DNA of 64,000 bases from an uncultured Ignavibacterium sp. (GCA_964484125.1 CAZAEK010000008.1:24868-88867), one strand, 5' to 3'. Shown: positions 16,885 to 35,942, counted from the first letter of the stretch. The notes: generated by a model from the letters alone, not told the origin. Program-made: numbers and translations.

Positions 16885-18228
16885 ATGAAAGAAAAAATAA
16901 AAATATTACTGGTTGATGACGAATTAAATTCAACTCAGATTCTTGGAAAAGTTCTCAGAAAAAAAGGATTTGATGTATATGAGGAAAATAGCAGCGTTAA
17001 TGCGAAAGAGCTTATCAAAAAGAATTTTTATGATATAATAATATCAGATTTGCAGATGCCAAATGTTTCAGGAATGGACTTGCTCGAAATTAAACCCGAA
17101 CATAGTTTATTTATAATGATAACAGGGTATGGTTCAGTATTATCTGCAGTGGAATCAATGAAAAAAGGAGCATTCGATTATGTGAACAAGCCATTTAATC
17201 TTGACGAATTCATTTTAAAAGTAGAAAAAGCGGCAGAAAAGGTTACGATGCAGACTGAACTTAATAAGTTAAAAGATATTGTTGAGAATGAAAACAATTT
17301 TTATGGAATAATCGGAAAAAGCCAGGAAATGCTTGATATATTTGATTTAATAAGAAATGTATCAAAAGTAAATATAAATTCACTGATTTATGGAGAAAGC
17401 GGAACAGGTAAAGAATTGATAGCCAGAGCAATACATAATTTAAGTGACAGAAACACAAAGCCATTCGTAGCAATAAACTGCAGTGCAATACCTGAAAACC
17501 TTCTGGAGAGTGAGCTTTTCGGACACACAAAGGGTGCATTTACTGGTGCAATTGATTCTCAAAAAGGAGTTTTTGAACAGGCAGATGGAGGCACTTTATT
17601 TTTAGATGAGATAGGTGATATGCCTTATAACCTTCAGGCAAAACTATTAAGAGTTTTAGAAAATTTCGAAGTTAAGCCGCTCGGAAGTGATAAAGTAAAG
17701 AAAATTGATATAAGATTAATATCAGCTACAAATCAAAATCTTGAAGAATTAATAAATGAAAAAAAATTTCGCGATGATTTATACTATAGAATAGCTACAA
17801 TCAAGATTAATCTTCCTCCATTAAGAGCAAGGAGAAGTGATATACCTTTAATAGCATACAATTATCTGAAAAAACTAGCTATTAAATTCGGAAGCGAATA
17901 TGAAATAACACCTGAGGCAATGGAAGCAATTACAAATTATGAATGGAAGGGAAACGTAAGAGAGCTTGAGAATGCTCTTGATATGGCTGCAATAAAAAGC
18001 TCAAATAAAATTATAGACATAACTTCTTTGCCTTTTAAGGGTGACGGAGGTTTTTCTATAAAAGAAATAACAACAGATAATACAAAGCCACAGACCTTAC
18101 TGGAAGTTGAAAAGTCTTATATAAAGCGAATCCTCGAATCTACCGGGGGAAATAAGCAAAAAGCAGCAGAAATCTTACAAATTGACAGAAAAACGCTGTA
18201 TAAAAAAATTAAAGACTATAACCTGTAA
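16885..18228 (+). CDS. Sigma-54-dependent response regulator (NtrC family: REC + AAA+ + Fis-type HTH)
   Basis: REC domain with LLVDDE and IIISDLQMP. AAA+ domain with GESGTGKE, ESELFGHTKGAFTGA (the GAFTGA loop) and LFLDEIG. The C-terminal HTH is GNKQKAAEILQIDRKTLYKK. Confidence 0.9.
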   Translation: MKEKIKILLVDDELNSTQILGKVLRKKGFDVYEENSSVNAKELIKKNFYDIIISDLQMPNVSGMDLLEIKPEHSLFIMITGYGSVLSAVESMKKGAFDYVNKPFNLDEFILKVEKAAEKVTMQTELNKLKDIVENENNFYGIIGKSQEMLDIFDLIRNVSKVNINSLIYGESGTGKELIARAIHNLSDRNTKPFVAINCSAIPENLLESELFGHTKGAFTGAIDSQKGVFEQADGGTLFLDEIGDMPYNLQAKLLRVLENFEVKPLGSDKVKKIDIRLISATNQNLEELINEKKFRDDLYYRIATIKINLPPLRARRSDIPLIAYNYLKKLAIKFGSEYEITPEAMEAITNYEWKGNVRELENALDMAAIKSSNKIIDITSLPFKGDGGFSIKEITTDNTKPQTLLEVEKSYIKRILESTGGNKQKAAEILQIDRKTLYKKIKDYNL

Positions 18229-18332: not shown

Positions 18333-18348
18333 TGGCACGATAATTGCT
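18333..18348 (+). promoter_or_regulatory. Sigma-54 (-24/-12) promoter
   Basis: TGGCAC-gataa-TTGCT is an exact match to the TGGCAC-N5-TTGCW consensus. It lies immediately downstream of the sigma-54 activator gene. Confidence 0.75.
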
Positions 18349-18353
18349 GAAAA

Positions 18354-18731
18354 ATGAACGTGAAAAAAGTATTAAAAATATTGGTTTTCAGTTTAAATCC
18401 TGAGATGTGTAAATTAATGAAAAAATTTTTTGCAAAATTTGATTACAAATTTGATTGTGTGAAAATAGAAATTGACTCAGACTGGCGAAATCAAATTTTT
18501 GATAAAGAAATAGACTGCATCATTCTTGACACTAATATTAATTCCAGAGTGCAGGTAGAAATAAGGCAAAAATTCAGCAAAGCTATTTTTATTCTGATTC
18601 CCTCCTTCTCAAGTGAACCATATCCTGATTCAAATTCAGCTGATTTAATTCCTGAACCTTTTAAATTCAGTGAACTTGAAAAAGCATTATCTGAAATATA
18701 TAAATCAAAAGCTACTTCTGATGCGCTTTAA
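18354..18731 (+). CDS. Receiver-like (pseudo-REC) protein, first ORF of the cytochrome operon; start codon uncertain
   Basis: The pattern is CheY-like: KILVFSL (the DD acidic pair is replaced), DCIILD (Asp kept), AIFILIPS, and PEPFKFSELEKAL (the conserved Lys in KPF is replaced by Glu). The stop overlaps the next gene's ATG. Confidence 0.45.
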   Translation: MNVKKVLKILVFSLNPEMCKLMKKFFAKFDYKFDCVKIEIDSDWRNQIFDKEIDCIILDTNINSRVQVEIRQKFSKAIFILIPSFSSEPYPDSNSADLIPEPFKFSELEKALSEIYKSKATSDAL

Positions 18732-20586
18732 AACACTGATTTCAATATTGTATTTATTAATTTTTTTTGTTTTAATAATATTCATTGTTTCTTCATCTGT
18801 ACAGGTTAAGGCAAAATATTCAGACGATTGTCTTGCATGTCACGAAGATAAAGACCTTATAATGGAGAAAAACGGGAGAAAAATTTCACTTTATGTAAAT
18901 CCTTCAGTTTATAAAGCATCAGTTCACGGAGGTGCTGATTGTAAAGATTGTCATCAGGGTTACAATCCTGAAGAAATACCTCATAATCCGAAAAGTAAAG
19001 GTGTTAATTGTAATGAATGTCATGATATAAAAAAGAACACTTCCTCTGTTCATAATAATGTAAAGTGTTATTCCTGCCACGGTTATCATGACGTTGTTAC
19101 TGCAAAAGAATTTGCCAAGTCAGATAATTGTATAAATTGCCATAATACAAAAAGCATAACTTCATTCAAACAATCAGTTCATTTCAGAAAAAATATTTCC
19201 TGTGATAAATGTCATAAAGGTGGGCATGAAGTAATAAAAATTTCAAAGTCAGAATCAACAAGACTATGCTCTCAATGTCATAGAAATGCATTTAACGAAG
19301 TAAATAACAGTGTACACAAGCAGGCAAGCGGAAAAGGGCAAACGCCTGTATGCGTTGACTGTCATGGATATCACAGTATAAATACAAACAGACTTAGCAT
19401 AGAAGCACAGTCGTGCTATAAATGCCACCTCAATGAAAAAATGTTCCCCGGTAAAGAAAAGGGTTCTGCAGATTTTGTAGCACAATACGAAAAAAGTGTT
19501 CATAATTCAGTAAGAAAAAACGGAATCCCTGCGGCTTCATGTACAGATTGTCATGGAGACCATTTGATTAAGGGTTCAAAAGACTTAGAGACTAAAGATG
19601 GAATTCTGGAGTCATGTATAAGATGCCATGATAAAGCAGTAAAAGAATTCAGGATGTCAAAACACGGCAATAATGTTGAAAAAAGTCCGGGAAATCCGTT
19701 TGAATGTACTGATTGTCATGGAGAGCACGGAATTTTAGCCGTTAAACTCGATAGTAAACTTTCGAAACTTATGCAAACCGATATGTGTCTTGAATGTCAT
19801 AAAGACAATAAGTTTCAATCGAAATTTAAACCCGGAACGGAATTACACATTAACGATTATTTGAATAGTGCACACTATATAAAGCTGAGAGAAGGAAATC
19901 CAAATGCCGCATCTTGTACCGATTGTCATGGCTCGCATGCGATGTTAAATGCACTTGATCCCAATTCTCCAATAAATCCTAAAAACATTTCCTCAACTTG
20001 CGGACAAAGTAATTGTCATAATAAAATATATAATGAATATAAAGGTTCAATACACGATGTCTCAGTTCAGACGAAAGAAAAATCTGATGCTCCGACTTGC
20101 GTAAATTGTCACGGTAGTCACGGACTTCTTAAAAAAGATGACCCGGCTAATCCTTTAGCAAAACCAAATGGAGTTGTGCAGTTATGTTCTGATTGTCATG
20201 CTTCGGTCAGGATTGTAGAAAATAATAATCTTCCAAAAGGTATAGTAACAGACTTTAATTCAAGTTTCCATGGACTCGCATTAAGAGGTGGTTCACAGGA
20301 GGCAGCAGATTGCGGAAGTTGTCACGGTGTTCACAATGTTCGTCCGTCTTCAGATCCTATGTCAAGTATTCACGATAATAACTTACCGCAGACCTGTGGT
20401 AAATGCCATCCTGGTGCAACACTTGCAACGTTTAAGACTCCTATACACCTTGTAGAAAGTGCAGAAGAAAATGTTATACTAAAATGGGTTAAAATATTAT
20501 ATACATTTTTAATAATTGCAATAATTGGATTTATGGTATTACATAATATTTTTGATTTTATTAAGAAATTAAGGACTAAACATTAA
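18721..20586 (+). CDS. Membrane-anchored multihaem cytochrome c (18 CXXCH + 1 CX4CH)
   Basis: I counted 18 CXXCH motifs plus CGQSNCH. Seven occur as CxxCHGxH, alternating with SVH...CxxCH units. The N-terminal signal/anchor is MRFKTLISILYLLIFF... and the C-terminal TM is ILYTFLIIAIIGFMVL. The ATG at 18721 is preferred over the GTG at 18670. Confidence 0.85.
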   Translation: MRFKTLISILYLLIFFVLIIFIVSSSVQVKAKYSDDCLACHEDKDLIMEKNGRKISLYVNPSVYKASVHGGADCKDCHQGYNPEEIPHNPKSKGVNCNECHDIKKNTSSVHNNVKCYSCHGYHDVVTAKEFAKSDNCINCHNTKSITSFKQSVHFRKNISCDKCHKGGHEVIKISKSESTRLCSQCHRNAFNEVNNSVHKQASGKGQTPVCVDCHGYHSINTNRLSIEAQSCYKCHLNEKMFPGKEKGSADFVAQYEKSVHNSVRKNGIPAASCTDCHGDHLIKGSKDLETKDGILESCIRCHDKAVKEFRMSKHGNNVEKSPGNPFECTDCHGEHGILAVKLDSKLSKLMQTDMCLECHKDNKFQSKFKPGTELHINDYLNSAHYIKLREGNPNAASCTDCHGSHAMLNALDPNSPINPKNISSTCGQSNCHNKIYNEYKGSIHDVSVQTKEKSDAPTCVNCHGSHGLLKKDDPANPLAKPNGVVQLCSDCHASVRIVENNNLPKGIVTDFNSSFHGLALRGGSQEAADCGSCHGVHNVRPSSDPMSSIHDNNLPQTCGKCHPGATLATFKTPIHLVESAEENVILKWVKILYTFLIIAIIGFMVLHNIFDFIKKLRTKH

Positions 20587-21284
20587 TGAATACTTCATCC
20601 GGGAAAAAATATTTAAGAATGTCATTAAATGAAAGAATACAGCATATTCTTTTATTAACTACATTTATTACATTAGTTATTACAGGTTTCGGTTTACTTT
20701 ATCCTGAAGCTTTTTGGGTAAAATGGATAGTAGCTATTGTAGGGCAAAATGCATTTGAGGCAAGAGGTGTTGTTCATAGAATTGCAGCAGTTGTTATGGT
20801 TATAGCTTCAGTTTATCATATTTTATATGTAGTATTTACTAAAAGAGGCAGAAGGTTTGTAATTGATATGTGGTTTAAAATTCAGGATATCAAAGATATG
20901 TTTTCATACCTGAAATACATTGTTGGATTATCAAAAGAAAAACCGAAATTCGGAAGGTTCAGCTATATTGAAAAAATGGAGTATTGGGCAGTTGTATGGG
21001 GTACAGTAGTTATGGGTGCTACAGGCGGAGTACTATGGTTTGAAAATGAATTTCTACCGATAATCGGAATGGATGGAATGTACATAGCAACAGCAATACA
21101 TCTTTACGAAGCAATACTCGCATCATTGGCAATACTTGTCTGGCATTTTTATTTTATTTTTATAAATCCTGATGTATTTCCGATGAATAAGGCATGGATA
21201 ACAGGTTACCTCACACATGAGCAAATGAAACACGAGCATCCTTTGGAACTTGAACAAATTGAATCTGGTAACATAAAAAATTAA
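20586..21284 (+). CDS. Membrane b-type cytochrome, FdnI/HydC/PhsC-like (4 TM, conserved His pairs)
   Basis: Four hydrophobic helices carry His residues (RIQHILLL, VHRIAAV...YHILY, AIHLYEA...VWHFYF). The TAATG junction overlaps the upstream cytochrome c gene. Confidence 0.65.
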   Translation: MNTSSGKKYLRMSLNERIQHILLLTTFITLVITGFGLLYPEAFWVKWIVAIVGQNAFEARGVVHRIAAVVMVIASVYHILYVVFTKRGRRFVIDMWFKIQDIKDMFSYLKYIVGLSKEKPKFGRFSYIEKMEYWAVVWGTVVMGATGGVLWFENEFLPIIGMDGMYIATAIHLYEAILASLAILVWHFYFIFINPDVFPMNKAWITGYLTHEQMKHEHPLELEQIESGNIKN

Positions 21285-21356: not shown

Positions 21357-21914
21357 ATGAAGGGCAAACAAACACTATTGACAATCACTGTAGTTGCGGC
21401 TATCGTACTTTCCTTCTCTGCATTTAATTTCTACCATGGTGTGGGACAGTTTAAATACGTTGGCGTGACAAAATGTGTGGGCGCATGTCATAAAACAGAC
21501 GCTCAGGGAAAACAGCTTGATATCTGGAAGAACTCAAAACATTCAATGGCATACAAAACCCTTGAAACTCCTGAAGCAGATAAGATTGCAAAGGAAAAGG
21601 GTTTTGAAACTAAAGCAGCCGAAACTCCAAACTGTCTTAAATGTCACGTACTCGGTAAAGATATGGACCCCTCAGAATTTACAGAGACATTTGATAAAAA
21701 AGATGGAGTTCAGTGTGAAAGCTGTCATGGTCCCGGCTCTGAGTATAAGACAATGTCAATTATGAAAGACAAACAAAAATCAATTGAAAATGGACTTATT
21801 GTCCACACAGAAAAAGAAGCTTTTTGCACAAACTGTCATAATGCAGAGAGCCCAACTTTTAAAGGATTTGAGTACGACAAGATGTGGGATGCAATAAAAC
21901 ATCCAAAGCCGTAA
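21357..21914 (+). CDS. Small periplasmic multihaem cytochrome c (3 CXXCH + 1 CX3CH), cytochrome c554-family-like
   Basis: It has a signal peptide and the motifs CVGACH, CLKCH, CESCH and CTNCH. 185 aa. Confidence 0.7.
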   Translation: MKGKQTLLTITVVAAIVLSFSAFNFYHGVGQFKYVGVTKCVGACHKTDAQGKQLDIWKNSKHSMAYKTLETPEADKIAKEKGFETKAAETPNCLKCHVLGKDMDPSEFTETFDKKDGVQCESCHGPGSEYKTMSIMKDKQKSIENGLIVHTEKEAFCTNCHNAESPTFKGFEYDKMWDAIKHPKP

Positions 21915-21993: not shown

Positions 21994-23298
21994 ATGATGA
22001 GAAAATTTATCTACTTTTTAATTCCTCTTTTTGTGGTTCTCTTCACTTCTACAGGTTTATATTCTCAAACTGTTAATGCAAGGTTCAGCACTTCTTTTTA
22101 TACCTGGGAAAGATATGACTCAATCGGTTCTGAATCTTCCACTAAACATTTGAGGGCATACCAGAATATTCTGCTTGATGTCTCGCAGAAAAAATGGTCT
22201 TTCAATACCAATGCTCAGCTTGAAGGGGATATAATAGAAAAATCCGGAAGAGGATTTAGCTACAGATTTTATAGTCTGTATATTAAAGGGTCAAACCTGT
22301 TTGATGTAATGGATGTCAGACTCGGAAGGCAATATGTCTCAGCCGGTGTTGGCAGGGGATATATTGACGGAGCACATCTGAAATTCAAACTCGGTAAAAG
22401 TAAAGAGTATCAACTTACTGCATACGGAGGCGGACTTTCACCACTCTCATACGATTTCGATTATGGAGAAAAATATCAATTAAAAGATAATTTTTCCATT
22501 GGTGCGATGTTTCAGTATTACGGTGTAAAAGACTTAATGCTTGGTGTAAGTTATTATAACAAACACAGAGCCGTACCGAGTTACTATGCCCCAAGACTTG
22601 ACAGCGCTCTTTTTACAAAGATTGTTGAAATTCAAACTGAGCCATTTGCTGATCAACTCGCAGGATTTGATTTTTCTTTTTTCAAGCCATCTTATCAGGC
22701 AATGGGAAAGGTTTACTATGATATAAACCTTAAAAAACTTTACAGGGCTGATTTGAATGCGGGTTTTAATGTTGCCGAAAATCTGCGTTTTAATTTCGGA
22801 TTTTTATATCGCGAACCACAGATAAGCTATAATACCATTTTCTGGGTTTTTCAGCATAAGCCGCTTTCCGAATTTGAAGCAGGATTGGATTATACACTTC
22901 TTAAAAAATATAATATATATTTCAAGGTTTCTGACGTGATGTATGATAACGATAATTCTGCAAAATTCTCATTTGGCTTTTCACATGCAAACTATGGAAT
23001 TTCATTTGTAAAATATACTGGTTATGCAGGAGAGTCTGACGGAGCATTTGGTTATTTCAATTATGAGTTGCTGAGGTCAAAACTTGCAATAACATCAGGT
23101 CTTAATTATTCCAACTATAGTATTAAAAATTATTCTGAAGATAAAGTAAGTGCGTTTTCAGGAATTCTCGGATTAGTTTACAGGCCTGTTGACCATTTCA
23201 CCATTGATTTACAGGGACAGATTATTACGAACAAAATTTATAAGACGGATACAAGAATATTGCTTGGTTTTAATTACTGGTTATTTAAGAAATTTTAA
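21994..23298 (+). CDS. Outer-membrane beta-barrel (porin-like) protein of the cytochrome locus
   Basis: Signal peptide MMRKFIYFLIPLFVVLFTSTGLYSQ. Strands are amphipathic and Tyr/Gly-rich throughout. The C-terminus ...GFNYWLFKKF ends in Phe (OMP signature). Confidence 0.65.
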   Translation: MMRKFIYFLIPLFVVLFTSTGLYSQTVNARFSTSFYTWERYDSIGSESSTKHLRAYQNILLDVSQKKWSFNTNAQLEGDIIEKSGRGFSYRFYSLYIKGSNLFDVMDVRLGRQYVSAGVGRGYIDGAHLKFKLGKSKEYQLTAYGGGLSPLSYDFDYGEKYQLKDNFSIGAMFQYYGVKDLMLGVSYYNKHRAVPSYYAPRLDSALFTKIVEIQTEPFADQLAGFDFSFFKPSYQAMGKVYYDINLKKLYRADLNAGFNVAENLRFNFGFLYREPQISYNTIFWVFQHKPLSEFEAGLDYTLLKKYNIYFKVSDVMYDNDNSAKFSFGFSHANYGISFVKYTGYAGESDGAFGYFNYELLRSKLAITSGLNYSNYSIKNYSEDKVSAFSGILGLVYRPVDHFTIDLQGQIITNKIYKTDTRILLGFNYWLFKKF

Positions 23299-23309
23299 AA
23301 TTCAACATT

Positions 23310-24569
23310 ATGAGAATTATGAAATTTTACACTTTGCTGATTACATGTCTGACTTTTTTCGTTACTATAACTGCCTATAATTTTTATTCGGGCGGGACAG
23401 TTACCTCAAAAAGTATTTTTACAAAACACGTAATAGCAAAGGACAATCCTGATAACAGGACAATTATCAAATTCAATCACTCTAAACATCTGAAAGACGC
23501 AGGGGTACAATGTACTGATTGTCATACTAAAGCTCCAAATTCTGTTAATGCCCTCGAAAGTCTTGTCCCGGTAAAAGCTGCCTGTGCAAACTGTCATGAT
23601 GTTGAAAATAAAAATGAATGCAGTCTATGTCATTTTGAAGGAGTTTTTAAAAAGCTTGTTCCAACTCTCAAGGAATTACATTTCAGCCATAAGAAACATG
23701 TAAAAGACAGTAAAATGCAATGCCTTGATTGCCATAGAAATATGCCCGAGTATAAATATTCAAGTGATAATCCTCAAAAATATCCGGAAATGGAAATATG
23801 TGCCAAATGTCATAACGATGTAGAAGCGACAATGAGCTGTGAGAAATGTCATACAAATCTGACTAATCTGAAACCGATGAATCATCTTCAGTCAAACTTT
23901 CTCAATGAGCATAAATGGGTATTTGAAGCTTCAAATGAAAAAAATAATTGTATGATGTGCCATTCGGATAATTTCTGTCAGGTTTGCCACAGTGCCGGGA
24001 AATATAACGGTTCGAATACAAAAAAAGATTTTTATGCCCCTTATTGGACAAAGAATTCAGGTACAAGAATTGACAGAGCGGAATTACAAAAACTAAATAC
24101 AGTTCATACTCTTAATTACCTTTATACTCACGGAATAGAAGCATTACATAAATCTTATGAGTGTAAAACCTGTCATGATCCGGTAGAGTTCTGTTCTGCC
24201 TGCCATAAGACGGGCGGTAATCTTGTAACTGGTTTCATGCCCAAAAGCCATCTTGTACCAAATTTCAAAACTTTCGGTGTAGGAACAGGTGGCGGATTAC
24301 ACGCTGAACTTGCAAGAAAGGATATTGAATCATGTCAGGCATGTCATGATGTGAACGGCGGTGATCAGATCTGTATAAAGTGTCATTTCGATAATGATGG
24401 AGTGAAAGGTACGAATCCCAGAACACATGAATGGGGATTTATGAAAGATGAAAAAGGAATCTGGCACGAAACACAGGGAGCTATTTGTTTCAGATGCCAT
24501 ACTGATGCAAATGCAAGACCAAATGGAATAGCCGGAATAGGATTCTGTGGCTATTGCCATGGTAAATAA
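23310..24569 (+). CDS. Multihaem cytochrome c (14 CXXCH)
   Basis: I counted 14 CXXCH motifs. It has an N-terminal hydrophobic signal/anchor. 419 aa. Confidence 0.85.
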   Translation: MRIMKFYTLLITCLTFFVTITAYNFYSGGTVTSKSIFTKHVIAKDNPDNRTIIKFNHSKHLKDAGVQCTDCHTKAPNSVNALESLVPVKAACANCHDVENKNECSLCHFEGVFKKLVPTLKELHFSHKKHVKDSKMQCLDCHRNMPEYKYSSDNPQKYPEMEICAKCHNDVEATMSCEKCHTNLTNLKPMNHLQSNFLNEHKWVFEASNEKNNCMMCHSDNFCQVCHSAGKYNGSNTKKDFYAPYWTKNSGTRIDRAELQKLNTVHTLNYLYTHGIEALHKSYECKTCHDPVEFCSACHKTGGNLVTGFMPKSHLVPNFKTFGVGTGGGLHAELARKDIESCQACHDVNGGDQICIKCHFDNDGVKGTNPRTHEWGFMKDEKGIWHETQGAICFRCHTDANARPNGIAGIGFCGYCHGK

Positions 24570-24609: not shown

Positions 24610-25482
24610 ATGAAAAAAAATAATCTTTTATATCTTCTTTTAATACCTGTGGTTATAATAATAATTACTTTATATAGCTGCAGTAAACTGGAAGATAATC
24701 TTGTAAATGCTCCTAAGGCAGGAATACATCCCGAGGGCTGGACCAACCCTGTAAATGAAAATTTTCACGGAAAGTATTTTTACTCGAATAAATGGGATTT
24801 TAAATTTTGTACACAATGTCACGGTGCTGATTATAATGGAGGTAACACGGGTAAAAGCTGTAATGATCCTGCATGCCATGGAAGTTCAACACCTGAAGAT
24901 TGCAGACTATGCCATGGAGACAGGAGTACTACAATTTTCCCGCCTGTTGGACTAAATGGCTCAACCTCAGTTACTTATATTGGTGTTGGTACTCATAACA
25001 CACATTTGAACAAAGATAGTACTCTCAGGAATTCAGCAAGAGTAAGATGTGTTTCATGCCACCCTTCTATAACAGGTTTTTATGACCCGAAACATATTGG
25101 TACGAATCCGGATAACATTGCTGATGTTGTATTTGATTCTCTTTCCAAAACCTCAACAGACGGAATAACTCCAAACCCTGTCTGGAATAGAAATAATCCA
25201 CAGTCATGCTCAGAGACTTATTGTCATGGAAATTTCAAAAATGGAAATTACAGACTAAATCCTGCTTCAATGATTAATCCTTCCTGGACAGATCCTAATT
25301 CTGTATATTGTGGTACCTGCCATGGAAATCCGGGAACAGGAAATCCTCTGCCGGGCGGTACACACCTGCAGGGATTTACAATTTATAATTGCTATTTCTG
25401 CCATGGTTCGGTTATCAGCAATACAGGAAATATTATAAATAAATCAAAACATATAAACGGAATCGTTAATATGAATCAGTAA
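24610..25482 (+). CDS. Lipoprotein multihaem cytochrome c (5 CXXCH + 2 CX4CH; CxxxxCH...CxxCH paired units)
   Basis: Lipobox ...ITLYSC. The units CNDPACH-x7-CRLCH and CSETYCH-x26-CGTCH resemble the Geobacter CxxxxCH/CxxCH domain (TIGR01904, recalled from memory). Confidence 0.75.
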   Translation: MKKNNLLYLLLIPVVIIIITLYSCSKLEDNLVNAPKAGIHPEGWTNPVNENFHGKYFYSNKWDFKFCTQCHGADYNGGNTGKSCNDPACHGSSTPEDCRLCHGDRSTTIFPPVGLNGSTSVTYIGVGTHNTHLNKDSTLRNSARVRCVSCHPSITGFYDPKHIGTNPDNIADVVFDSLSKTSTDGITPNPVWNRNNPQSCSETYCHGNFKNGNYRLNPASMINPSWTDPNSVYCGTCHGNPGTGNPLPGGTHLQGFTIYNCYFCHGSVISNTGNIINKSKHINGIVNMNQ

Positions 25483-25664: not shown

Positions 25665-25680
25665 TGGCACAAAAATTGAT
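25665..25680 (+). promoter_or_regulatory. Sigma-54 (-24/-12) promoter
   Basis: TGGCAC-aaaaa-TTGAT has one mismatch at -12. It lies about 45 nt upstream of the ATG at 25725, which has a GGAGG SD. Confidence 0.6.
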
Positions 25681-25724: not shown

Positions 25725-27119
25725 ATGAAAAGATATTTTTCGTTTTTTTTGATAGTTTCAATAATCTTCATTTCTGAGTCTCTATTCTCGCAGTCAACAA
25801 GTTTTCATATGTTGAGAAAAGGACATGCAAATTTTTATGCTTCAACAAATGGTGGATTTGAAACTATATCAAATATTCCGATTAATGCTCTGCGCTGTTT
25901 GAAATGTCATCCGGGCAAATTGGCAAATAATACACCAATTGATACTGCAACTTATGCACCTTCCTGCAATGATTGCCATAATTTTTCTGCAGGAACTTCA
26001 GTGCCAGATACAATATGTCTGAGATGTCACAGCAGGCAAAAAGTTGAAAGAGCAAATTTCACAGACAAACACAGATCTGCAGGAATGACTTGCGTAACCT
26101 GTCATATTAAGGATGAACTACATGCAGATGCAACTCCTTATTTTTCAGGGTTCGATACTATTCAGGGTAAAACATGTACAACAGTTGGTTGTCATAACAA
26201 CGTCCCTGTAACTCCTGACGATTCACTTGCTCACGCAATTCACAACAGCAAGCTCGAATGTGCCACATGCCATGCAAGGTCTCAGATAACCTGTTACAAC
26301 TGCCACTTTGAAACAGAAATCTGGCAGGGAATGAGAGGATTTAAAAGACCAATTGGCCAATATAAAGGTTTCATAATGCTCGGAAGATATACCAAAACCG
26401 GAAAGGTAGGTATTGTCAATTATCAGTCAATTATCTATCAGGGCAATAAAACATTTAATGCATGGGGTCCGTATTATCCTCATACGATAATGCCAAAGGA
26501 TTCAACACGCGGCTGCTCCGAATGTCACAACGCTCCAACTATTCAGGAATACAATACAACAACAAAAATCGTTGTTGCAAAATGGGATTCTACTCTTACA
26601 CCAAAGAAAATAGTTCACACTCAGGGAATGATTCCTGTTCCACCTGATTATTTAACTTCTTTGGTTTTTGATTTTGCAAACTATATTGGCAGAGTTGATA
26701 CAACATATACAGACCCGACCAAATGGGTATATGCCAAAACCGGTTTAACAGGAAATCAGATGCTATCGAGATATGTAATGCCTTTAACTGCGGCACAGAT
26801 GACGGCACTTGGCTCAACTATCGGTATCACACCAATCAGCACCGAGGTACCAGGTAATTTTGAATTATTCCAAAACTATCCAAATCCGTTCAACCCGAGC
26901 ACAGTTATCAAATTTAATATTGCAAAGACTGCAAACGTTTCGATAAATGTATATAATTCACTTGGTAAACTTGTTACAACATTAGTATCGCAGAAATTGA
27001 ATTCGGGTACATATCAGGTTGATTTTGATGGCAAAGAACTTTCCAGTGGTATTTATTTCTACACAATGAATATTGACGGAAAGGTATCAGCTGCTAAAAA
27101 GATGCTGTTGGTAAAGTAA
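25725..27119 (+). CDS. Multihaem cytochrome c (7 CXXCH + 1 CX4CH) with T9SS C-terminal sorting domain
   Basis: It has a signal peptide and the motifs CLKCH, CNDCH, CLRCH, CVTCH, CTTVGCH, CATCH, CYNCH and CSECH. The C-terminus is FQNYPNPFNPSTVIKFNI...GIYFYTMNIDGKVSAAKKMLLVK. Confidence 0.85.
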   Translation: MKRYFSFFLIVSIIFISESLFSQSTSFHMLRKGHANFYASTNGGFETISNIPINALRCLKCHPGKLANNTPIDTATYAPSCNDCHNFSAGTSVPDTICLRCHSRQKVERANFTDKHRSAGMTCVTCHIKDELHADATPYFSGFDTIQGKTCTTVGCHNNVPVTPDDSLAHAIHNSKLECATCHARSQITCYNCHFETEIWQGMRGFKRPIGQYKGFIMLGRYTKTGKVGIVNYQSIIYQGNKTFNAWGPYYPHTIMPKDSTRGCSECHNAPTIQEYNTTTKIVVAKWDSTLTPKKIVHTQGMIPVPPDYLTSLVFDFANYIGRVDTTYTDPTKWVYAKTGLTGNQMLSRYVMPLTAAQMTALGSTIGITPISTEVPGNFELFQNYPNPFNPSTVIKFNIAKTANVSINVYNSLGKLVTTLVSQKLNSGTYQVDFDGKELSSGIYFYTMNIDGKVSAAKKMLLVK

Positions 27120-27148: not shown

Positions 27149-27189
27149 GAGACCGGTTCCGATATTTGTCGGGACCGGTCTCAGTTTTT
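27149..27189 (+). terminator. Strong rho-independent terminator
   Basis: GAGACCGGTTCCG-atatttgt-CGGGACCGGTCTC is a 13-bp stem with one G-U, followed by AGTTTTT. Confidence 0.8.
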
Positions 27190-27864: not shown

Positions 27865-28524
27865 TTGAATATAATTTATAAATCTGCCGTTTTTATCATC
27901 ATAACAGGAGTGTTACTGGCTGCATTCTTATCGCCAATTCCAAATATACCTGCTCTTGGCGAGAAAGCAAGGATAATTTTCCTTCATGTTCCGACTGCAT
28001 GGCTTAGCGTAGTAGCTTTTTTAATTTCTATGATATATTCAGTCATATATCTTAAAAAAAGAGATATATTCGCTGATATAAAAGCATTTGCCTCGGCTGA
28101 GATCGGATTTTTATTTTGTATTCTTGCAACAGTTACAGGTTCAGTTTGGGCAAAATTCAGTTGGGGTTCTTTCTGGAACTGGGATCCGAGGGAGACTTCA
28201 ATTTTTATCCTTTTGCTTATTTATGGAGCTTATTTCTCATTAAGGTCAGCTATAGATAATCCGGAACAAAAAGCTAAACTCGCATCTGTATATTCCATTA
28301 TTGCTTTTATAACTGTACCTTTTTTCATATTTATAATGCCGCGTCTTGTTGAGACGCTTCACCCTGACCCGATTATTAACGACAGGGGCAAAATAAATAT
28401 GTCACCGAATATGCAGATAATATTTTTCAGTTCATTAGCTGGATTTACTATGCTTTTTTTCTGGATGTTAAATGTTAAGGTACGATTGGAAAATCTAAGA
28501 ATTAAAAAAATTAATATAAACTAA
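27865..28524 (+). CDS. ccmC: Haem exporter/haem-handling protein CcmC (System I cytochrome c maturation)
   Basis: Trp-rich WWD motif WGSFWNWDPRETS, flanking His residues (FLHVPTAW, ETLHPDP) and 6 TM segments. It has a TTG start. Confidence 0.8.
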   Translation: MNIIYKSAVFIIITGVLLAAFLSPIPNIPALGEKARIIFLHVPTAWLSVVAFLISMIYSVIYLKKRDIFADIKAFASAEIGFLFCILATVTGSVWAKFSWGSFWNWDPRETSIFILLLIYGAYFSLRSAIDNPEQKAKLASVYSIIAFITVPFFIFIMPRLVETLHPDPIINDRGKINMSPNMQIIFFSSLAGFTMLFFWMLNVKVRLENLRIKKININ

Positions 28525-28534
28525 AGAATAATTT

Positions 28535-28648
28535 ATGAATGATATCTATGTTGTTTTAATTATCGCTTTAATAATCTGGTTTGGATTGTTTATTTATTTA
28601 TTTATGATTGACAAAAGATTAAAAAAACTTGAAGATGAAAACAAATAA
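28535..28648 (+). CDS. ccmD: CcmD-like small membrane protein (37 aa; below the ORF-track cut-off)
   Basis: My own translation is MNDIYVVLIIALIIWFGLFIYLFMIDKRLKKLEDENK. It is a single TM followed by a basic tail, placed between ccmC and ccmE as in canonical ccm operons. Confidence 0.6.
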   Translation: MNDIYVVLIIALIIWFGLFIYLFMIDKRLKKLEDENK

Positions 28649-28654
28649 AATTTT

Positions 28655-29041
28655 ATGAATAACAGAATTAAAATAATTATAGGGGTTGTTATTGTTCTTG
28701 TCTTTGTATCCATTGGCTTTTTTAAGTTTATGGATACAAAAATTGAATACGTCAATTTTCAGGAGGCAACTGCTAAGTCAAAAGTCGTTGAAGTTAAAGG
28801 CGTATGGCTTAAAGACAAGGAAACAAAATTTGATCCTGAAAAAGCAACTTTTGAATTCTTTATGAAAGATGATTATAATACTGAAATGAAGGTAATTTAC
28901 CAGGGAGGAAAACCTAATAACTTTGAAGTTGCAGATGCAATAGTTGTTAAAGGTCAGGTAAAAAACGGCTCGTTTCATGCAAAAGAAATTCTGACAAAAT
29001 GCCCGTCTAAATACGAAGGCGACGGACAGGATGTAAAATAA
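28655..29041 (+). CDS. ccmE: Haem chaperone CcmE, CxxxY variant
   Basis: It has an N-terminal TM anchor and an OB-fold-length body. The C-terminal LTKCPSKYEG sits where HxxxY is found in canonical CcmE. Confidence 0.75.
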   Translation: MNNRIKIIIGVVIVLVFVSIGFFKFMDTKIEYVNFQEATAKSKVVEVKGVWLKDKETKFDPEKATFEFFMKDDYNTEMKVIYQGGKPNNFEVADAIVVKGQVKNGSFHAKEILTKCPSKYEGDGQDVK

Positions 29042-29067
29042 TATTTCACCATAATTTTAATCTTAAT

Positions 29068-31353
29068 ATGATAGGAAAAATTCTCGTTTATATAACATTA
29101 GCCGCAAGTTTTATATCAATTATCGGCTATGCGTTAACTTATTTCAGAAAAAATAATCTTCTTAAGATATCAAGATTATTTTTTCACATTACAGTTATAA
29201 GTGTACTGTTCGCTTCGGCTTACTTATTAAGTCTGATTTTATCTCATCAGTTCCAGTATTCCTATGTCTGGGAATATAGCAGCCGTTCACTCGGAACACC
29301 ACTTCTGATTTCCACTTTCTACGCAGGACAGGAAGGAAGTTTTTTACTCTGGGCACTTTTTGCATCAATTATCGGAATATTTCTGATAAATAATGTCTCG
29401 AAAAATTCTGATTTTGAAGCACCTGTAATGATGATTTATACATTAGTAATAGCATTCCTTGCAGTGCTTTTAGTACTGAAATCACCCTTTACTACTATCT
29501 GGGAAGCATTCCCGGGACAGGTAAAAGAAAATTATATGCCTGAGGATGGAAGAGGGCTAAACCCGATATTACAGAACTTCTGGATGGTAATACACCCGCC
29601 TATTTTATTTATCGGCTTTGCTTCACTTGCAGTACCATTTTCTTTTGCACTTGCAACCCTGTTTAATAAAAAATACAGGGAATGGGTTTACTATGTAATG
29701 CCATGGATGCTATTTGCTTCAGCTACTTTAGGCCTTGGTATTATTCTCGGAGGATATTGGTCTTATGGTGTTCTCGGCTGGGGCGGATATTGGGCATGGG
29801 ATCCGGTAGAAAATTCATCTCTGATTCCATGGCTCGTTTCAGTTGCGGCTTTGCATACTCTTATTGGTCAGAAAGCAACAGAAGGATATAAAAAAACAAA
29901 TATTATTTTATCAATTATTGCTTATCTGCTTGTACTTTATTCTACTTTTCTTACAAGAAGCGGAATACTTCAGGATGCTTCTGTTCATTCCTTTGTTAAG
30001 CCCGGAATGGAAGTATATATAGCACTTGTCCTTTTCATCTCTTCATTTGCATTAATATCTGCTATTGCGATTGCAGTAAGATTTAAGTCTCTGAGTGAAG
30101 TTGCAAAAAAAGATGCGAAAGTAAATATTCTTTCAAGAGAAGCGGTTTTGTATATCGGGGCACTGATTATTCTTGCATCAGGTGCTATTATCATTGCAGG
30201 AACAAGTTTACCTATTTTCTCCAAAAGCACAGTAGATATCAGTTTCTATAACCAGATGAATATGCCAATTGCAATTGTAATGCTCGTTTTTGCAGCAATA
30301 GCTTTTTTCCTTGATTGGAGATCAACTGACACTAAAAAGTTTCTAAATAAATTAATTACTCCGGCTGCACTTGCGCTTGTTACAACCATTATCCTTGCTA
30401 TATTTGCAATTAATGAATTAGTATATATAATATTTACATTTGTTATATTTTTTGCTTTCTTTTCCGGTTTAATAAAACTCGGAAATGTTTTCAAGGCAAA
30501 GAAATTAACTTTTGGTGCCGCAGTTGCACATATCGGACTTGCACTTTTCTTCCTCGGAATTATTGCATCTTCAAAATACAGTGAAGAAGTAAAGTTATCA
30601 CTTGAAATGGGTAAACCTGCAGAAGCTTTTGGATATTTATTCACCTATACAGGAGCAGAGCCGTTTGACGACCCTCAAAATCCAAACGATGAAAAATATT
30701 ATTTTAACATACTCGTTGAAAAAGATAATAAAGAAATGGTATTAAAGCCGGTGATGTATTTCAGTAGTTTCAATGAAGGCCTTATGAAAAATCCTGATAT
30801 AGCAAGTTTTGTTACTAAAGATATTTATCTCTCTCCGATAGAATTAATTGCTCCCCAGAAATTCAACCCCAAAGATGAACAAGCAATTGGTCAAAATGAA
30901 GAAAAAGAAATCAATGGTGTAAAAATAAAATTTATTGATTTTGACCTGAGCCAGGCACCAATGGGAAATCAGGCGGAAATGACAGATTATTCTATTTTTG
31001 CTAATGTCAGCACTACTTATAACGGAAAAACTAATCCTTTAAAACTCGAATTGAAATATGTTGGAGGAGTGCCTGAACCTGTAGAAATTAATCTTCCGCA
31101 GGATGAAAAAATTACATTAATGTTTACAGGTATGAATGTAAAAAATGAACAGAACCCGGTATCATCAGCAAAAATAGTTGTTGCAACCGAAGAAACTAAA
31201 TCAAAATTTAAAAAGCAGGAAGAAATGATGATAGCAAGTGTTGCTATAAAACCATTTATCGGAGTTTTATGGCTTGGTGCTTTTATAATGATTTTTGGTT
31301 TCTTCTATTCAATTATAAAAAGAGTCAGGGATTTGAAAAAGGTAAATAATTAA
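29068..31353 (+). CDS. ccmF: Cytochrome c haem lyase subunit CcmF
   Basis: 761 aa and polytopic, with the WWD motif WGGYWAWDPVENSSLIPW. Confidence 0.85.
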   Translation: MIGKILVYITLAASFISIIGYALTYFRKNNLLKISRLFFHITVISVLFASAYLLSLILSHQFQYSYVWEYSSRSLGTPLLISTFYAGQEGSFLLWALFASIIGIFLINNVSKNSDFEAPVMMIYTLVIAFLAVLLVLKSPFTTIWEAFPGQVKENYMPEDGRGLNPILQNFWMVIHPPILFIGFASLAVPFSFALATLFNKKYREWVYYVMPWMLFASATLGLGIILGGYWSYGVLGWGGYWAWDPVENSSLIPWLVSVAALHTLIGQKATEGYKKTNIILSIIAYLLVLYSTFLTRSGILQDASVHSFVKPGMEVYIALVLFISSFALISAIAIAVRFKSLSEVAKKDAKVNILSREAVLYIGALIILASGAIIIAGTSLPIFSKSTVDISFYNQMNMPIAIVMLVFAAIAFFLDWRSTDTKKFLNKLITPAALALVTTIILAIFAINELVYIIFTFVIFFAFFSGLIKLGNVFKAKKLTFGAAVAHIGLALFFLGIIASSKYSEEVKLSLEMGKPAEAFGYLFTYTGAEPFDDPQNPNDEKYYFNILVEKDNKEMVLKPVMYFSSFNEGLMKNPDIASFVTKDIYLSPIELIAPQKFNPKDEQAIGQNEEKEINGVKIKFIDFDLSQAPMGNQAEMTDYSIFANVSTTYNGKTNPLKLELKYVGGVPEPVEINLPQDEKITLMFTGMNVKNEQNPVSSAKIVVATEETKSKFKKQEEMMIASVAIKPFIGVLWLGAFIMIFGFFYSIIKRVRDLKKVNN

Positions 31354-31461: not shown

Positions 31462-32346
31462 ATGTTTAATTCCATTGTATTAGTTAAGCAGGTTCCCGAT
31501 ACCACAAATATTACCGGACAGGTAATGAAAGAGGATGGTACGGTAAACAGAGCTAAACTGCCTGCTATTTTTAATTTTGAGGATAAAGTTGCACTTGAAC
31601 TTGCGTTGAGAATAAAAGATGAATATGGAGGGAAGGTAACAGCAATAACAATGGGACCTCCGAGAGCTTCAGATATTTTAAGAGAATGTCTTTATATGGG
31701 AGCCGATGAAGTATATGCAATAAGCGACAGAAAATTTGCCGGAGCTGATACATTGGCAACGTCTTATGTACTGAGTGAAGCAATAAAAAAAATCGGTCAG
31801 TATGATTTTATATTTGCAGGCAGACAGGCAATAGACGGAGATACTGCTCAGGTTGGACCACAGACAGCAGAAAAACTTGGAATACCACAGGTAACTTATG
31901 TAGAAGAAATACTCGGGCTTTCGGAAGGTAAAGCTAAAATCAGAAAAAAAATAGACGGAGGTTTTGAAATAGTTGAAGTAAAACTACCTGTATTATTAAC
32001 GGTTATCAAGGAAGCCGCTGAGCCAAGACCTTACAGCGCCAAAAGGGTAATGCAATACAAGGGGGCTAAATCATTAATGGATTTGGAAAAACTTACTGAA
32101 GGAAATCCTTTGCTTTATATTGATTCACTTCAGCACGAATATGAAAAAAGAAATTTATTTATCCCGACACTCACAACAGATGATTTACCTGTTGACCTTT
32201 CGAGGATAGGTATAAAAGGTTCGCCTACAAAAGTTTACAAAATCGAATCTGTTGTTTTAGCAGGCGGAAATAAAGAAATAATAGAGCCGACCAAAAAGGG
32301 AATAGGTGAGCTGATAGATAAATTAATTGATGACCATATATTTTAA
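31462..32346 (+). CDS. etfB: Electron transfer flavoprotein beta subunit
   Basis: The N-terminus IVLVKQVPDT... and ...GRQAIDGDTAQVGPQ... are typical of EtfB. Confidence 0.85.
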   Translation: MFNSIVLVKQVPDTTNITGQVMKEDGTVNRAKLPAIFNFEDKVALELALRIKDEYGGKVTAITMGPPRASDILRECLYMGADEVYAISDRKFAGADTLATSYVLSEAIKKIGQYDFIFAGRQAIDGDTAQVGPQTAEKLGIPQVTYVEEILGLSEGKAKIRKKIDGGFEIVEVKLPVLLTVIKEAAEPRPYSAKRVMQYKGAKSLMDLEKLTEGNPLLYIDSLQHEYEKRNLFIPTLTTDDLPVDLSRIGIKGSPTKVYKIESVVLAGGNKEIIEPTKKGIGELIDKLIDDHIF

Positions 32347-32382
32347 TTTTTTATAATCAAGGTAACATAAAGAATTTATAAA

Positions 32383-33417
32383 ATGAGTAATAGCGGAACA
32401 AAAAATAAGCCATCTGAAGTTTGGGTATTCATTGAACAAAGAGAAGGTAAACCTGCAGATGTGAGTTTTGAGCTTTTAAGCAAGGGAAGGAAACTTGCAG
32501 ATAATATGAACGGGCTTCTGAAAGCAATAGTGATAGGGGATAACGTTTCCGGAATTGCAAAAGAATCATTCAGGTTCGGCGCAAACGAAGCTTATCTTAT
32601 TCAGCATCCTGAACTTAAACATTACAGAACTTTGCCTTATGCAAGGATACTTAATGAACTTATAGAGAAAGAAAATCCGAGGATTGTACTTTTTGGAGCT
32701 ACAATTATCGGGAGAGATCTTGCTCCAAGGGTTGCATCACATACAAAAAGCGGGCTGACAGCTGACTGCACAGATTTAAAAATTGCAGATATAACTTATC
32801 TTAACAAAGATTACAGGGAACTGCTTCTGCAGATCAGACCTGCATTTGGCGGTAATATCGTTGCAACTATTATTACTCCGGACGTATATGTTCAGATGGC
32901 AACTGTAAGAGAAGGCGTAATGGAAATGCATCAATATGAAAATCCTTTTGAAGTAAAGATTACTGAAATACCTTATGTACCGAATGAAATTGATAACCTA
33001 GTAACATTTATTGAACAGCATAGAGAAGAATCAAAAATTAATTTAAAAGCCGCACCAATAATAGTAGCAGGGGGTTACGGACTCGGAACGAAAGAGAATT
33101 TTAATTTAATATTTGAACTTGCTCATACACTCGGAGCTGAAGTCGCCGGAAGCCGTGCCGCAGTTGATGCGGGATTTATTCCACACGAAAGACAGGTAGG
33201 TCAAACAGGCGTTACCGTTCGTCCAAAGTTATACATTGCAGTTGGTATTTCCGGTGCAATTCAACACAGAGCAGGTATGCAGGAAGCTAATAAAATAATA
33301 GCAATAAACAATGACCCTGATGCACCGATCTTTGAAATTGCACATTATGGAATAGTAGGAGATGCAACAGAAATAATACCGACATTTATCGAAACTTATA
33401 AAAGTAAATTGAAATAA
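32383..33417 (+). CDS. etfA: Electron transfer flavoprotein alpha subunit
   Basis: The C-terminal FAD motif is ...GSRAAVDAGF...QVGQTG..V.PKLYIAVGISGAIQH. Confidence 0.85.
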   Translation: MSNSGTKNKPSEVWVFIEQREGKPADVSFELLSKGRKLADNMNGLLKAIVIGDNVSGIAKESFRFGANEAYLIQHPELKHYRTLPYARILNELIEKENPRIVLFGATIIGRDLAPRVASHTKSGLTADCTDLKIADITYLNKDYRELLLQIRPAFGGNIVATIITPDVYVQMATVREGVMEMHQYENPFEVKITEIPYVPNEIDNLVTFIEQHREESKINLKAAPIIVAGGYGLGTKENFNLIFELAHTLGAEVAGSRAAVDAGFIPHERQVGQTGVTVRPKLYIAVGISGAIQHRAGMQEANKIIAINNDPDAPIFEIAHYGIVGDATEIIPTFIETYKSKLK

Positions 33418-33423
33418 AATAAT

Positions 33424-35787: not shown

Positions 35788-35942
35788 TTTTATTATCTCC
35801 TTTTTTATTTATAATATAAAACCAAAATATTGATTTTTTAATTCTATTTCTATGTATTTTTTTAATGGTAGTAAAATTAATCATTTATTTAATTATTTTT
35901 TTTTATACTTTCATAAGAATTTTTAACCTAAATTTTAAAAAT

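Follow-up and report, generated by a model that had tools for sequence, protein, structure and literature searches.

The window analysed here is a stretch of 64,000 nucleotides from an uncultured Ignavibacterium sp. (GCA_964484125.1 CAZAEK010000008.1:24868-88867), read on one strand. On its plus strand two overlapping genes, at positions 18721..20586 and 20586..21284, encode a 19-haem c-type cytochrome (hereafter the multihaem cytochrome, MHC) and a predicted four-helix dihaem cytochrome b of the FdnI type, and it is this bc pair that an earlier note on the same DNA had described as a putative new quinol-oxidising module. The MHC reading frame runs from an ATG start codon (an in-frame GTG lies upstream at 18670) and specifies 621 amino acids (aa), in which 18 CXXCH haem motifs are accompanied by a single CX4CH site, CGQSNCH, at residue 427. 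Indeed all 38 cysteines of the protein sit within these motifs. The sequence CxxCHGxH occurs exactly seven times (residues 116, 211, 274, 329, 399, 460 and 531), each copy is preceded by S-x-H, and the seven modules can be aligned with one another; the sevenfold repeat, the CGQSNCH site and the 18-19 haems that had been reported are thereby borne out. The same complement of 18 CXXCH motifs and one CX4CH motif is found in 115 of 120 homologues, so the number of haems is no coincidence, and the cysteines and histidines of all the haem motifs are invariant among the homologues. A further 19 histidines outside the motifs are also invariant (H69, 88, 111, 123, 154, 169, 199, 218, 261, 281, 315, 336, 385, 406, 445, 467, 517, 538 and 576). 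This equals one distal ligand per haem, and all 19 haems are therefore probably bis-His coordinated.

Hydrophobic segments are found at both ends of the MHC, at residues 1-32 and ~584-615, and its AlphaFold2 model (pLDDT 78) places an N-terminal helix at residues 3-26 and a C-terminal helix at 585-620. The sequence of the N-terminal helix is not conserved; that of the C-terminal, transmembrane (TM) helix is, and it bears the invariant residues M605, H608, N609 and D612. In many homologues (V/L/I/S)-x-A is found about five residues before the first haem cysteine (VKA|KY in the window MHC), and because this pattern fits cleavage by signal peptidase, what looks like a second anchor at the N-terminus may instead be a signal peptide that is removed. 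Of the earlier suggestion that the cytochrome is anchored at both ends, the two hydrophobic helices stand, whilst a permanent N-terminal anchor is unproven. When the modelled fold was searched against known structures, MtrA was matched no more than marginally (E 0.01, TM 0.26/0.53) and the remainder was HAO-like noise; for a model, this supports a wire-like cytochrome and no closer assignment. The best match by sequence in the PDB, covering MHC residues ~34-175 (window ~18820-19245), was 28pb chain A (profile E 5e-15), a 278-aa 'Cytochrome c' that carries no further description and is possibly a recently solved relative.

The two genes meet in the sequence CAT TAA TGA (CATTAATGA), where the ATG of the cytochrome b gene starts on the last base of the TAA that ends the MHC gene, giving the TAATG overlap that had been noted. 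The two-gene form is shared by eight independent genomes (loci L001-L008) and more than 100 metagenomic proteins, and the split is for that reason not a frameshift artefact. The second gene encodes a protein of 232 aa that matches PF01292 in Pfam over residues 12-194 (47.7 bits against a cut-off of 30.1). Its best match in NCBIfam is TIGR01583, the equivalog model for the gamma subunit of formate dehydrogenase (FDH), at 65.7 bits, well below the cut-off of 115.85, and NF007924 likewise scores 42.4 bits against a cut-off of 341. Only one protein in the PDB was matched by sequence, namely E. coli FdnI (E 0.011 with the single sequence and 1.1e-7 with a profile), and the FdnI haem ligands H18, H57, H155 and H169 align with H20, H64, H172 and H187 of the window protein. 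The structural comparison gave the same answer: the AlphaFold2 model (mean pLDDT 77) has helices at residues 14-38, 56-84, 127-160 and 163-193, and in a Foldseek search of the PDB its sole significant match was FdnI (1kqf_C; E 6.5e-6, probability 1.00, TM 0.68/0.73, 226 columns), the next, HyaC (4gd3_A), not being significant. The second gene is thus, as far as sequence and predicted fold allow, that of an FdnI/HydC-type dihaem cytochrome b with its predicted b-haem ligands in place, as the earlier note had proposed.

Six histidines of the b protein (H20, H64, H78, H172, H187 and H218) are invariant in 28 homologues from Ignavibacteria. Across 120 diverse representatives of the b family the four ligand histidines are 99-100% conserved, and H78 and H218 are each conserved in 94%. 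The predicted axial ligands are distributed as one on TM1, one on TM2 and two on TM4 and lie within the membrane; a loss of conservation or a position outside the membrane would have told against the b-type assignment, and neither is seen. H78 lies at the cytoplasmic end of TM2, and H218 in the tail of the protein, which ends in a soluble, conserved EHPLELE sequence. As both the N-terminus and the TM2-TM3 loop are rich in lysine and arginine, the sequence indicates the topology of FdnI, with the N- and C-termini inside. The idea of a third b haem, held by H78 of TM2 and H608 of the MHC anchor helix, was considered and set aside. In 65 fused relatives (see below) H78 and the anchor histidine occur together in 45, H78 occurs without the anchor histidine in 18 (where tyrosine, tryptophan or leucine replaces it or the position cannot be aligned) and the reverse is seen in two; the losses are not coupled, and the idea is therefore unsupported.

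The distribution of the family ties the two proteins together. A search with the b family scanned 1.84 billion representatives and at E <= 1e-3 gave 2256 clusters (at 50% identity), and among species-representative genomes more than 574 loci were found to hold a relative of the b gene; the architecture counts given here cover the best 149 family representatives and the locus counts the best 80 loci. In 85 of the 149 representatives a single polypeptide joins an N-terminal signal or TM segment, 3-19 CXXCH motifs, an anchor helix and the four-helix b domain, and these natural fusions argue that the two window proteins act as one unit. Linkage of the b gene to an MHC holds in 79 of 80 loci, and the anchor-helix motif GxMxxHNxxD is common to the split form and most of the fused relatives. 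Fusions with 13 and 11 haems dominate in Bacteroidota, Holophagales, Opitutaceae and Acidobacteriaceae, and the cultured Ignavibacterium album has a fused 13-haem relative (L039). Close counterparts of the window pair among the fusions are proteins of 884-906 aa with 18 or 19 CXXCH motifs from sister lineages, namely MAGs of Kryptoniota, Ignavibacteriales and Bacteroidota (loci L009, L017, L041, L054, L063 and L068). They are colinear with the pair at 36-40% identity over the MHC and 55% over the b domain (e.g. HEY9186614.1), differing from it in a linker of ~20-30 residues where the window has TAATG and, in some, in a fifteenth site that is CXXCH, not CX4CH. The gene context is shared as well: genes for a c554-like cytochrome and an outer-membrane barrel, described for the window below, follow the fused gene in five of the six loci (all but L054), and those for a 14-haem cytochrome and a lipoprotein cytochrome are also found behind it in L009, L041, L063 and L068. 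The description of the pair as a two-gene version of a fused b/c protein therefore holds. In public records thousands of homologues are called either 'cytochrome c3 family protein' or 'formate dehydrogenase subunit gamma', and for the clade of the window b protein the latter name is a misannotation.

The closest relatives, L001-L008 (Ignavibacterium, Ignavibacteria and Kapaibacterium; 60-72% identity), keep the two-gene form. In seven of them (L002-L008) a NapC/NirT-type 17-haem membrane cytochrome is encoded between the b and c554-like genes, and in L002 (10779-16050) and L004 (10827-16273) there are in addition genes for a 15-haem cytochrome, an NrfC-like iron-sulphur (Fe-S) protein and an NrfD-like protein. 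This NrfCD module is absent from the window, L001, L003 and L005-L008. Since the window has neither the NapC/NirT-type cytochrome nor the module of MHC, NrfC and NrfD, it represents the minimal form of the cluster. In six other loci (L010, L033, L037, L060, L069 and L071) a separate MHC and cytochrome b pair directly follows a fused 13-haem MHC-b gene (at ~10.7-13.6 kb within each locus). The arrangement suggests that paralogous bc modules lie side by side and that fission or fusion has happened more than once.

The bc pair heads an operon that, from its sequence, appears to cover the whole cell envelope, a context that the earlier note overlooked both for its sigma54 promoter and for its complete porin-cytochrome pathway. 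All of the features concerned lie on the plus strand. Upstream of the pair, 16885..18228 encodes an NtrC-type sigma54-dependent response regulator with receiver, sigma54 AAA+ and Fis-type helix-turn-helix domains (Sigma54_activat 240 bits, Response_reg, HTH_8), a homologue of which is found near the MHC and cytochrome b genes in 27 of the 80 related loci. A predicted sigma54 -24/-12 promoter (TGGCACGATAATTGCT, 18333..18348) directly follows the activator gene, 388 nt before the MHC gene begins, and is the sole perfect match in the 64-kb window, where 0.06 would be expected. L001, L006 and L008 each have a perfect site at a matching distance from the MHC start (388-393 nt upstream), and L005 has one with a single mismatch at 415 nt; the activator probably switches on the operon through this promoter. 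Between the promoter and the pair is a small conserved open reading frame (ORF, 18354..18731, ~105-125 aa) that overlaps the start of the MHC gene by 11 nt. Its true start is probably a further downstream methionine, because the first ATG is only 6 nt past the promoter. Homologues are encoded directly upstream of the MHC gene in L001-L008 and keep the motifs D-x-(I/L)-(I/L)-(L/I/F)-D, LPS and SEPFKLSE, and the product looks like a degenerate stand-alone receiver domain. Neither this ORF (125 aa) nor the barrel protein described next gave anything meaningful in Pfam even at E <= 10.

Downstream of the b gene, the remaining genes of the cluster follow on the same strand with short gaps. The first (21357..21914) encodes a small c554-like periplasmic cytochrome (Cytochrome_C554, 61 bits; 3 CXXCH + CX3CH) that is a candidate periplasmic carrier and is found in 28 of the 80 loci; its CX3CH site reads CVGACH, and the protein also gives a partial NCBIfam match to the C-terminal part of a UshA-like (seleno)protein model. 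It is followed by a putative outer-membrane beta-barrel or porin (21994..23298; 434 aa), which has a signal peptide, no cysteine and a C-terminus in ...YWLFKKF, and which matches no family in Pfam or NCBIfam. Next come a 14-haem cytochrome with a signal peptide (23310..24569), the presumed periplasm-facing partner of the barrel, and a 7-haem lipoprotein cytochrome (24610..25482; 5 CXXCH + 2 CX4CH, lipobox LYSC), the presumed partner on the outer face, which matches the Geobacter-type CxxxxCH/CxxCH domain model TIGR01904 at 48.4 bits (cut-off 27). In 25 related loci the barrel gene is always followed by the genes for the 14-haem and lipoprotein cytochromes. The last gene (25725..27119) encodes an 8-haem cytochrome (7 CXXCH + CX4CH) with a C-terminal sorting domain of the type IX secretion system (T9SS; Por_Secre_tail 44.6 bits, TIGR04183). 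It is presumed to be a terminal reductase at the cell surface, and its sorting domain implies that a haem-loaded surface cytochrome is exported by the T9SS. A second sigma54 promoter before this gene, at 25665-25680, was considered and rejected: the site has one mismatch, in the GC of the -12 element, and is not significant because three one-mismatch sites are seen against 1.4 expected. A strong intrinsic-terminator-like hairpin with a 15-bp stem, 9 GC pairs and a T-rich tail closes the cluster at 27149..27182.

Beyond the hairpin, still on the plus strand and outside the module, 27865..31353 contains ccmC-, ccmE- and ccmF-like genes of cytochrome c maturation System I (Cytochrom_C_asm, CcmE, CcmF_C). 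They are followed at 31462-35145 by genes for EtfB-like and EtfA-like proteins and a long acyl-CoA dehydrogenase, a possible electron route into the quinone pool, and a second, unrelated ORF with a C-terminal tail similar to that of the T9SS cytochrome (NYPNPFNP...) is found at 35865-36866. No FDH (including FdnG/FdnH), hydrogenase, molybdopterin or Fe-S protein was detected by Pfam among the 19 neighbouring ORFs between 13395 and 35145, and no NrfC or NrfD homologue was found in the window by tblastn and Pfam.

Gene anatomy, the conservation of haem ligands, the FdnI fold, homology to fused and CbcL-type proteins, the operon context and the promoter motif together make it reasonably likely that the pair is an inner-membrane menaquinol:multihaem-cytochrome c oxidoreductase that passes electrons to the porin-cytochrome conduit beside it, as a split member of a family that joins an MHC to an FdnI-like cytochrome b. 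How the subunits touch, where the quinone site lies, which way electrons flow, what accepts them and how the operon is regulated are matters of inference, for which we propose the following scheme. The b subunit would lie in the inner membrane with both termini in the cytoplasm, H20/H187 binding the haem nearer the cytoplasm and H64/H172 the haem nearer the periplasm. The C-terminal helix of the MHC would pack on it as the FdnH anchor packs on FdnI, and the last c haems (the C559 motif, with distal ligand H576) would thereby be placed just above the periplasmic b haem. By analogy with FdnI, quinol would be oxidised at the b subunit near the cytoplasmic-side haem, and electrons would cross the membrane via the two b haems and enter the periplasm through the chain of 19 bis-His c haems. 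From there the c554-like cytochrome and/or the 14-haem cytochrome would pass them on, via the 7-haem lipoprotein and the 8-haem surface cytochrome exported by the T9SS, to a final extracellular acceptor, e.g. Fe(III)/Mn(IV) minerals. The neighbouring NtrC-type activator would turn on the operon via sigma54, much as BccR acts on cbcBA in Geobacter. Oxidation of quinol on the cytoplasmic side with electrons moving outward would dissipate membrane potential, in keeping with the low growth yields that have been reported when Geobacter respires through CbcBA.

Several points weigh against this interpretation. The window clade is known from sequence alone, the scheme assigns no part to H78, H218 or the histidine on the anchor helix, the label 'porin' is inferred for a barrel that has no family match, and the homology to CbcL rests on machine-read and Desulfuromonadales-type fragments. 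The additional candidate quinol modules encoded by the close relatives mean that the bc pair may not be the sole or main entry point for electrons in this lineage. The direction of electron flow is not fixed by sequence: FdnI is itself a quinone reductase, and relatives of the MtoC type are found in Fe(II) oxidisers (PMC6295460). To call the module 'quinol-oxidising', as had been done, is to name a direction that sequence cannot settle. The same complex could be run inward, electrons from outside (from Fe(II), reduced humics, a cathode or a partner cell) reducing menaquinone at the cytoplasmic-side site and an FdnI-style redox loop building a proton-motive force, as has been proposed for MtoC. 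The b subunit is closest in both sequence and fold to FdnI, a quinone reductase, the CbcL/MtoC/MtrH proteins are found in Fe(III) reducers as well as Fe(II) oxidisers and are considered able to work either way (PMC6295460), and nothing in the sequence imposes a direction. Set against this, the genetically characterised CbcL and CbcBA act outward (bioRxiv 10.1101/2021.04.15.440034), cultured Ignavibacteria are known as reducers of Fe(III), As(V) and nitrate (PMC7399161) and the last gene of the cluster encodes a secreted surface cytochrome of the sort typically found in reducers; these arguments are not decisive, and we regard the inward direction as unlikely, though by no means negligible. Somewhat more doubtful is a variant in which the MHC, anchored at its C-terminus only, forms a rigid wire that spans most of the periplasm and plugs straight into the porin complex, wiring the quinone pool to the surface with no diffusing carrier, and in which the clade-specific H78, the His-Asn pair of the anchor helix and H218 in addition form a quinone, proton or cofactor site absent from FdnI and CbcL; extrapolating from the 20-haem MtrCAB chain, such a wire could reach 15-18 nm.

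Other readings would assign the chemistry elsewhere. If the N-terminal helix of the MHC were uncleaved and resembled that of NapC/NirT/NrfH proteins, the MHC could itself be the quinol dehydrogenase and the b protein an accessory or second entry point. The first CXXCH does lie ~11-13 residues after the N-terminal helix, whose uncharged run is long (median 18 residues, up to 23), and there is both a weak NrfH match over residues 27-96 (24.8 bits, E 1.8e-5) and a NapC/NirT match in Pfam. However, the NrfH score is far under the cut-off of 134, the NapC/NirT match falls at residues 191-235 and not at the N-terminus, and close relatives encode a separate, genuine NapC/NirT-type MHC. The cleavage-like motif before haem 1 in many homologues, together with the conservation of the C-terminal but not the N-terminal helix, points the same way and makes this role for the MHC improbable. 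A slightly smaller chance still is given to an Hmc/Tmc/Nhc-type or ACIII-like complex dependent on Fe-S and NrfD-type subunits, or to a catalytic reductase for a soluble periplasmic substrate. There are weak partial matches to HmcA, NrfB, HAO and ActA-type cytochromes, and MHC, NrfC and NrfD genes do form part of the cluster in L002 and L004. Yet HmcA scores only 32.7 bits against a cut-off of 400, the NrfCD genes are missing from the window and from six of the eight closest loci, and where they occur they come with their own 15-haem cytochrome; nor is an open catalytic haem apparent, because all 19 haems have a conserved distal histidine. Membership of a known Hmc/Nhc/Tmc complex with further obligatory subunits, which had been named in advance as the finding that would overturn the assignment, was accordingly rejected, the cluster having no NrfC/NrfD or Fe-S genes. 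Least credible of all is that the b gene encodes a true gamma subunit for an FDH or hydrogenase encoded elsewhere, with the MHC beside it by accident. The database names and the rank of TIGR01583 as best NCBIfam match speak for it, but that match falls short of its threshold, no FdnG/FdnH or hydrogenase genes lie nearby, the start of the b gene overlaps the MHC stop codon, the MHC linkage extends to all but one of the 80 loci and most relatives are fused. The fusion and linkage data effectively refute it.

The pair is therefore best described as a split form of a type of inner-membrane b/c cytochrome that had been recognised before, belonging to a clade that is unstudied and very widespread. 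To call it a new module was an overstatement, since the fused CbcL/MtoC/MtrH proteins, the two-gene CbcBA and other Geobacter Cbc clusters have already been published (PMC6295460; bioRxiv 10.1101/2021.04.15.440034; PMC4245776). In literature searches for the pair in Ignavibacteria or Melioribacter, porin-cytochrome clusters and counts of ImcH/CbcL homologues were found, and no description of the two-gene module. No current concept is overturned by the pair. Within extracellular electron transfer, inner-membrane quinol:cytochrome modules are, to our knowledge, the step that is least understood, and we know of studied examples from Geobacter and Shewanella only. Members of the clade occur across hundreds of species-level genomes, from Ignavibacteria, Bacteroidota, Acidobacteriota, Verrucomicrobiota, Calditrichota and further groups, and its recognition as a bc module of the CbcL-like kind, whether fused or split, would allow better prediction of metal- and electrode-respiring capacity from metagenomes. 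The compact operon, with its regulator, promoter, bc module, carrier, porin complex and T9SS cytochrome, could also serve as a self-contained pathway for heterologous expression.

Among known systems, FdnI, the gamma subunit of E. coli FDH-N (1kqf chain C), offers the structural template for the b protein. The two have in common the four-helix fold, the N-in/C-in topology and four equivalent ligand histidines, and the partner FdnH, like the window MHC, has one C-terminal TM anchor and is encoded just upstream of its b-type partner. They share only ~20% identity, however, and differ in the extra conserved H78 and H218 of the window protein and in the partner itself, which is a 19-haem cytochrome in the window and the Fe-S/molybdopterin proteins FdnGH in E. 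coli. Ignavibacteria have been reported to carry porin-cytochrome clusters of the Geobacter kind (PMC4245776, PMC7399161), and in 2014 a cytochrome c with helices like those of FDH-gamma, encoded beside a pcc/mtr cluster, was proposed to cycle the quinone pool (PMC4245776). The logic is that of the window pair, namely b-like helices and an MHC beside a porin-cytochrome cluster; the cytochromes described there, likened to the pair by description, are fused, carry 8 (6 + 2 atypical) or ~11 haems and come from other phyla.

CbcBA of Geobacter sulfurreducens (GSU0593-0594, regulated by BccR; Joshi et al. 2021, bioRxiv 10.1101/2021.04.15.440034) resembles the window in its organisation. Dihaem b and MHC subunits are encoded by separate genes, a C-terminal TM helix with a conserved histidine (H608 in the window) anchors the c subunit, and the operon has a sigma54 promoter, an adjacent gene for an NtrC-type activator and a small response-regulator-like gene. 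Unlike the window MHC, CbcA has 7 haems, and the gene order is b then c. CbcB has been described as providing three ligand histidines, the fourth coming from CbcA, and as lacking sequence homology to CbcL-type b domains (bioRxiv 10.1101/2021.04.15.440034). Since the window b protein is homologous to CbcL, its membership of the CbcBA family is unlikely, and CbcB, compared here by description only, probably represents a different b lineage.

The pair also has a close parallel in the CbcL/MtoC/MtrH family (Zhong & Shi 2018, PMC6295460), whose members are fused proteins of 416-1034 aa that carry 3-23 CXXCH motifs and have six TM helices in their C-terminal half; the published tables include 19-haem proteins from Ignavibacteria (PMC6295460). 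CbcL, like CbcBA, is genetically required for the reduction of low-potential extracellular acceptors (bioRxiv 10.1101/2021.04.15.440034; PMC9129911). For G. sulfurreducens CbcL (GSU0274; Zacharoff 2016) the reference consisted of machine-read fragments from a supplement (PMC9129911), and the search yielded five short Desulfuromonadales-type fragments and no full-length CbcL. One of these, P0410, is 67% identical to the machine-read GSU0274 fragments (a related fragment, P0412, is named for Desulfuromonas), keeps both TM4 histidines and ends in an extra hydrophobic helix. Aligned by hhalign to the family profile A2, it gave a probability of 99.7% (E 4.8e-27, 28% identity, 137 columns), and CbcL-type b domains, as represented by these machine-read fragments, are on this comparison homologous to the window b protein. 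No CbcL-like protein is found among the best 150 representatives of the b family. The haem spacing of the fused relatives (37, 21-23, ~30, 28, 42-45, 28, 30...) matches that in the published tables (PAW67162.1, OGU58019.1), and the window MHC shares the first two spacings of the CbcL family and the later 42-43/28-30 repeats. CbcL and the window pair have in common a periplasmic bis-His MHC, an anchor helix and an FdnI/HydC-like dihaem b domain, and both the CbcL family and the pair are associated with outer-membrane cytochrome conduits. They differ in that the window has two genes, not one, and 19 haems against 9, with an anchor helix and four TM helices where the CbcL type has an anchor and five (six TM in all, including the extra C-terminal helix), and the window clade has HxYEA instead of HSDEA around the TM4 histidine, the additional conserved H78 and one CX4CH site. 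From the four TM helices beside the anchor, H78 and the CX4CH site we conclude, on sequence grounds, that the window pair belongs to the same superfamily as CbcL and forms a separate clade within it.

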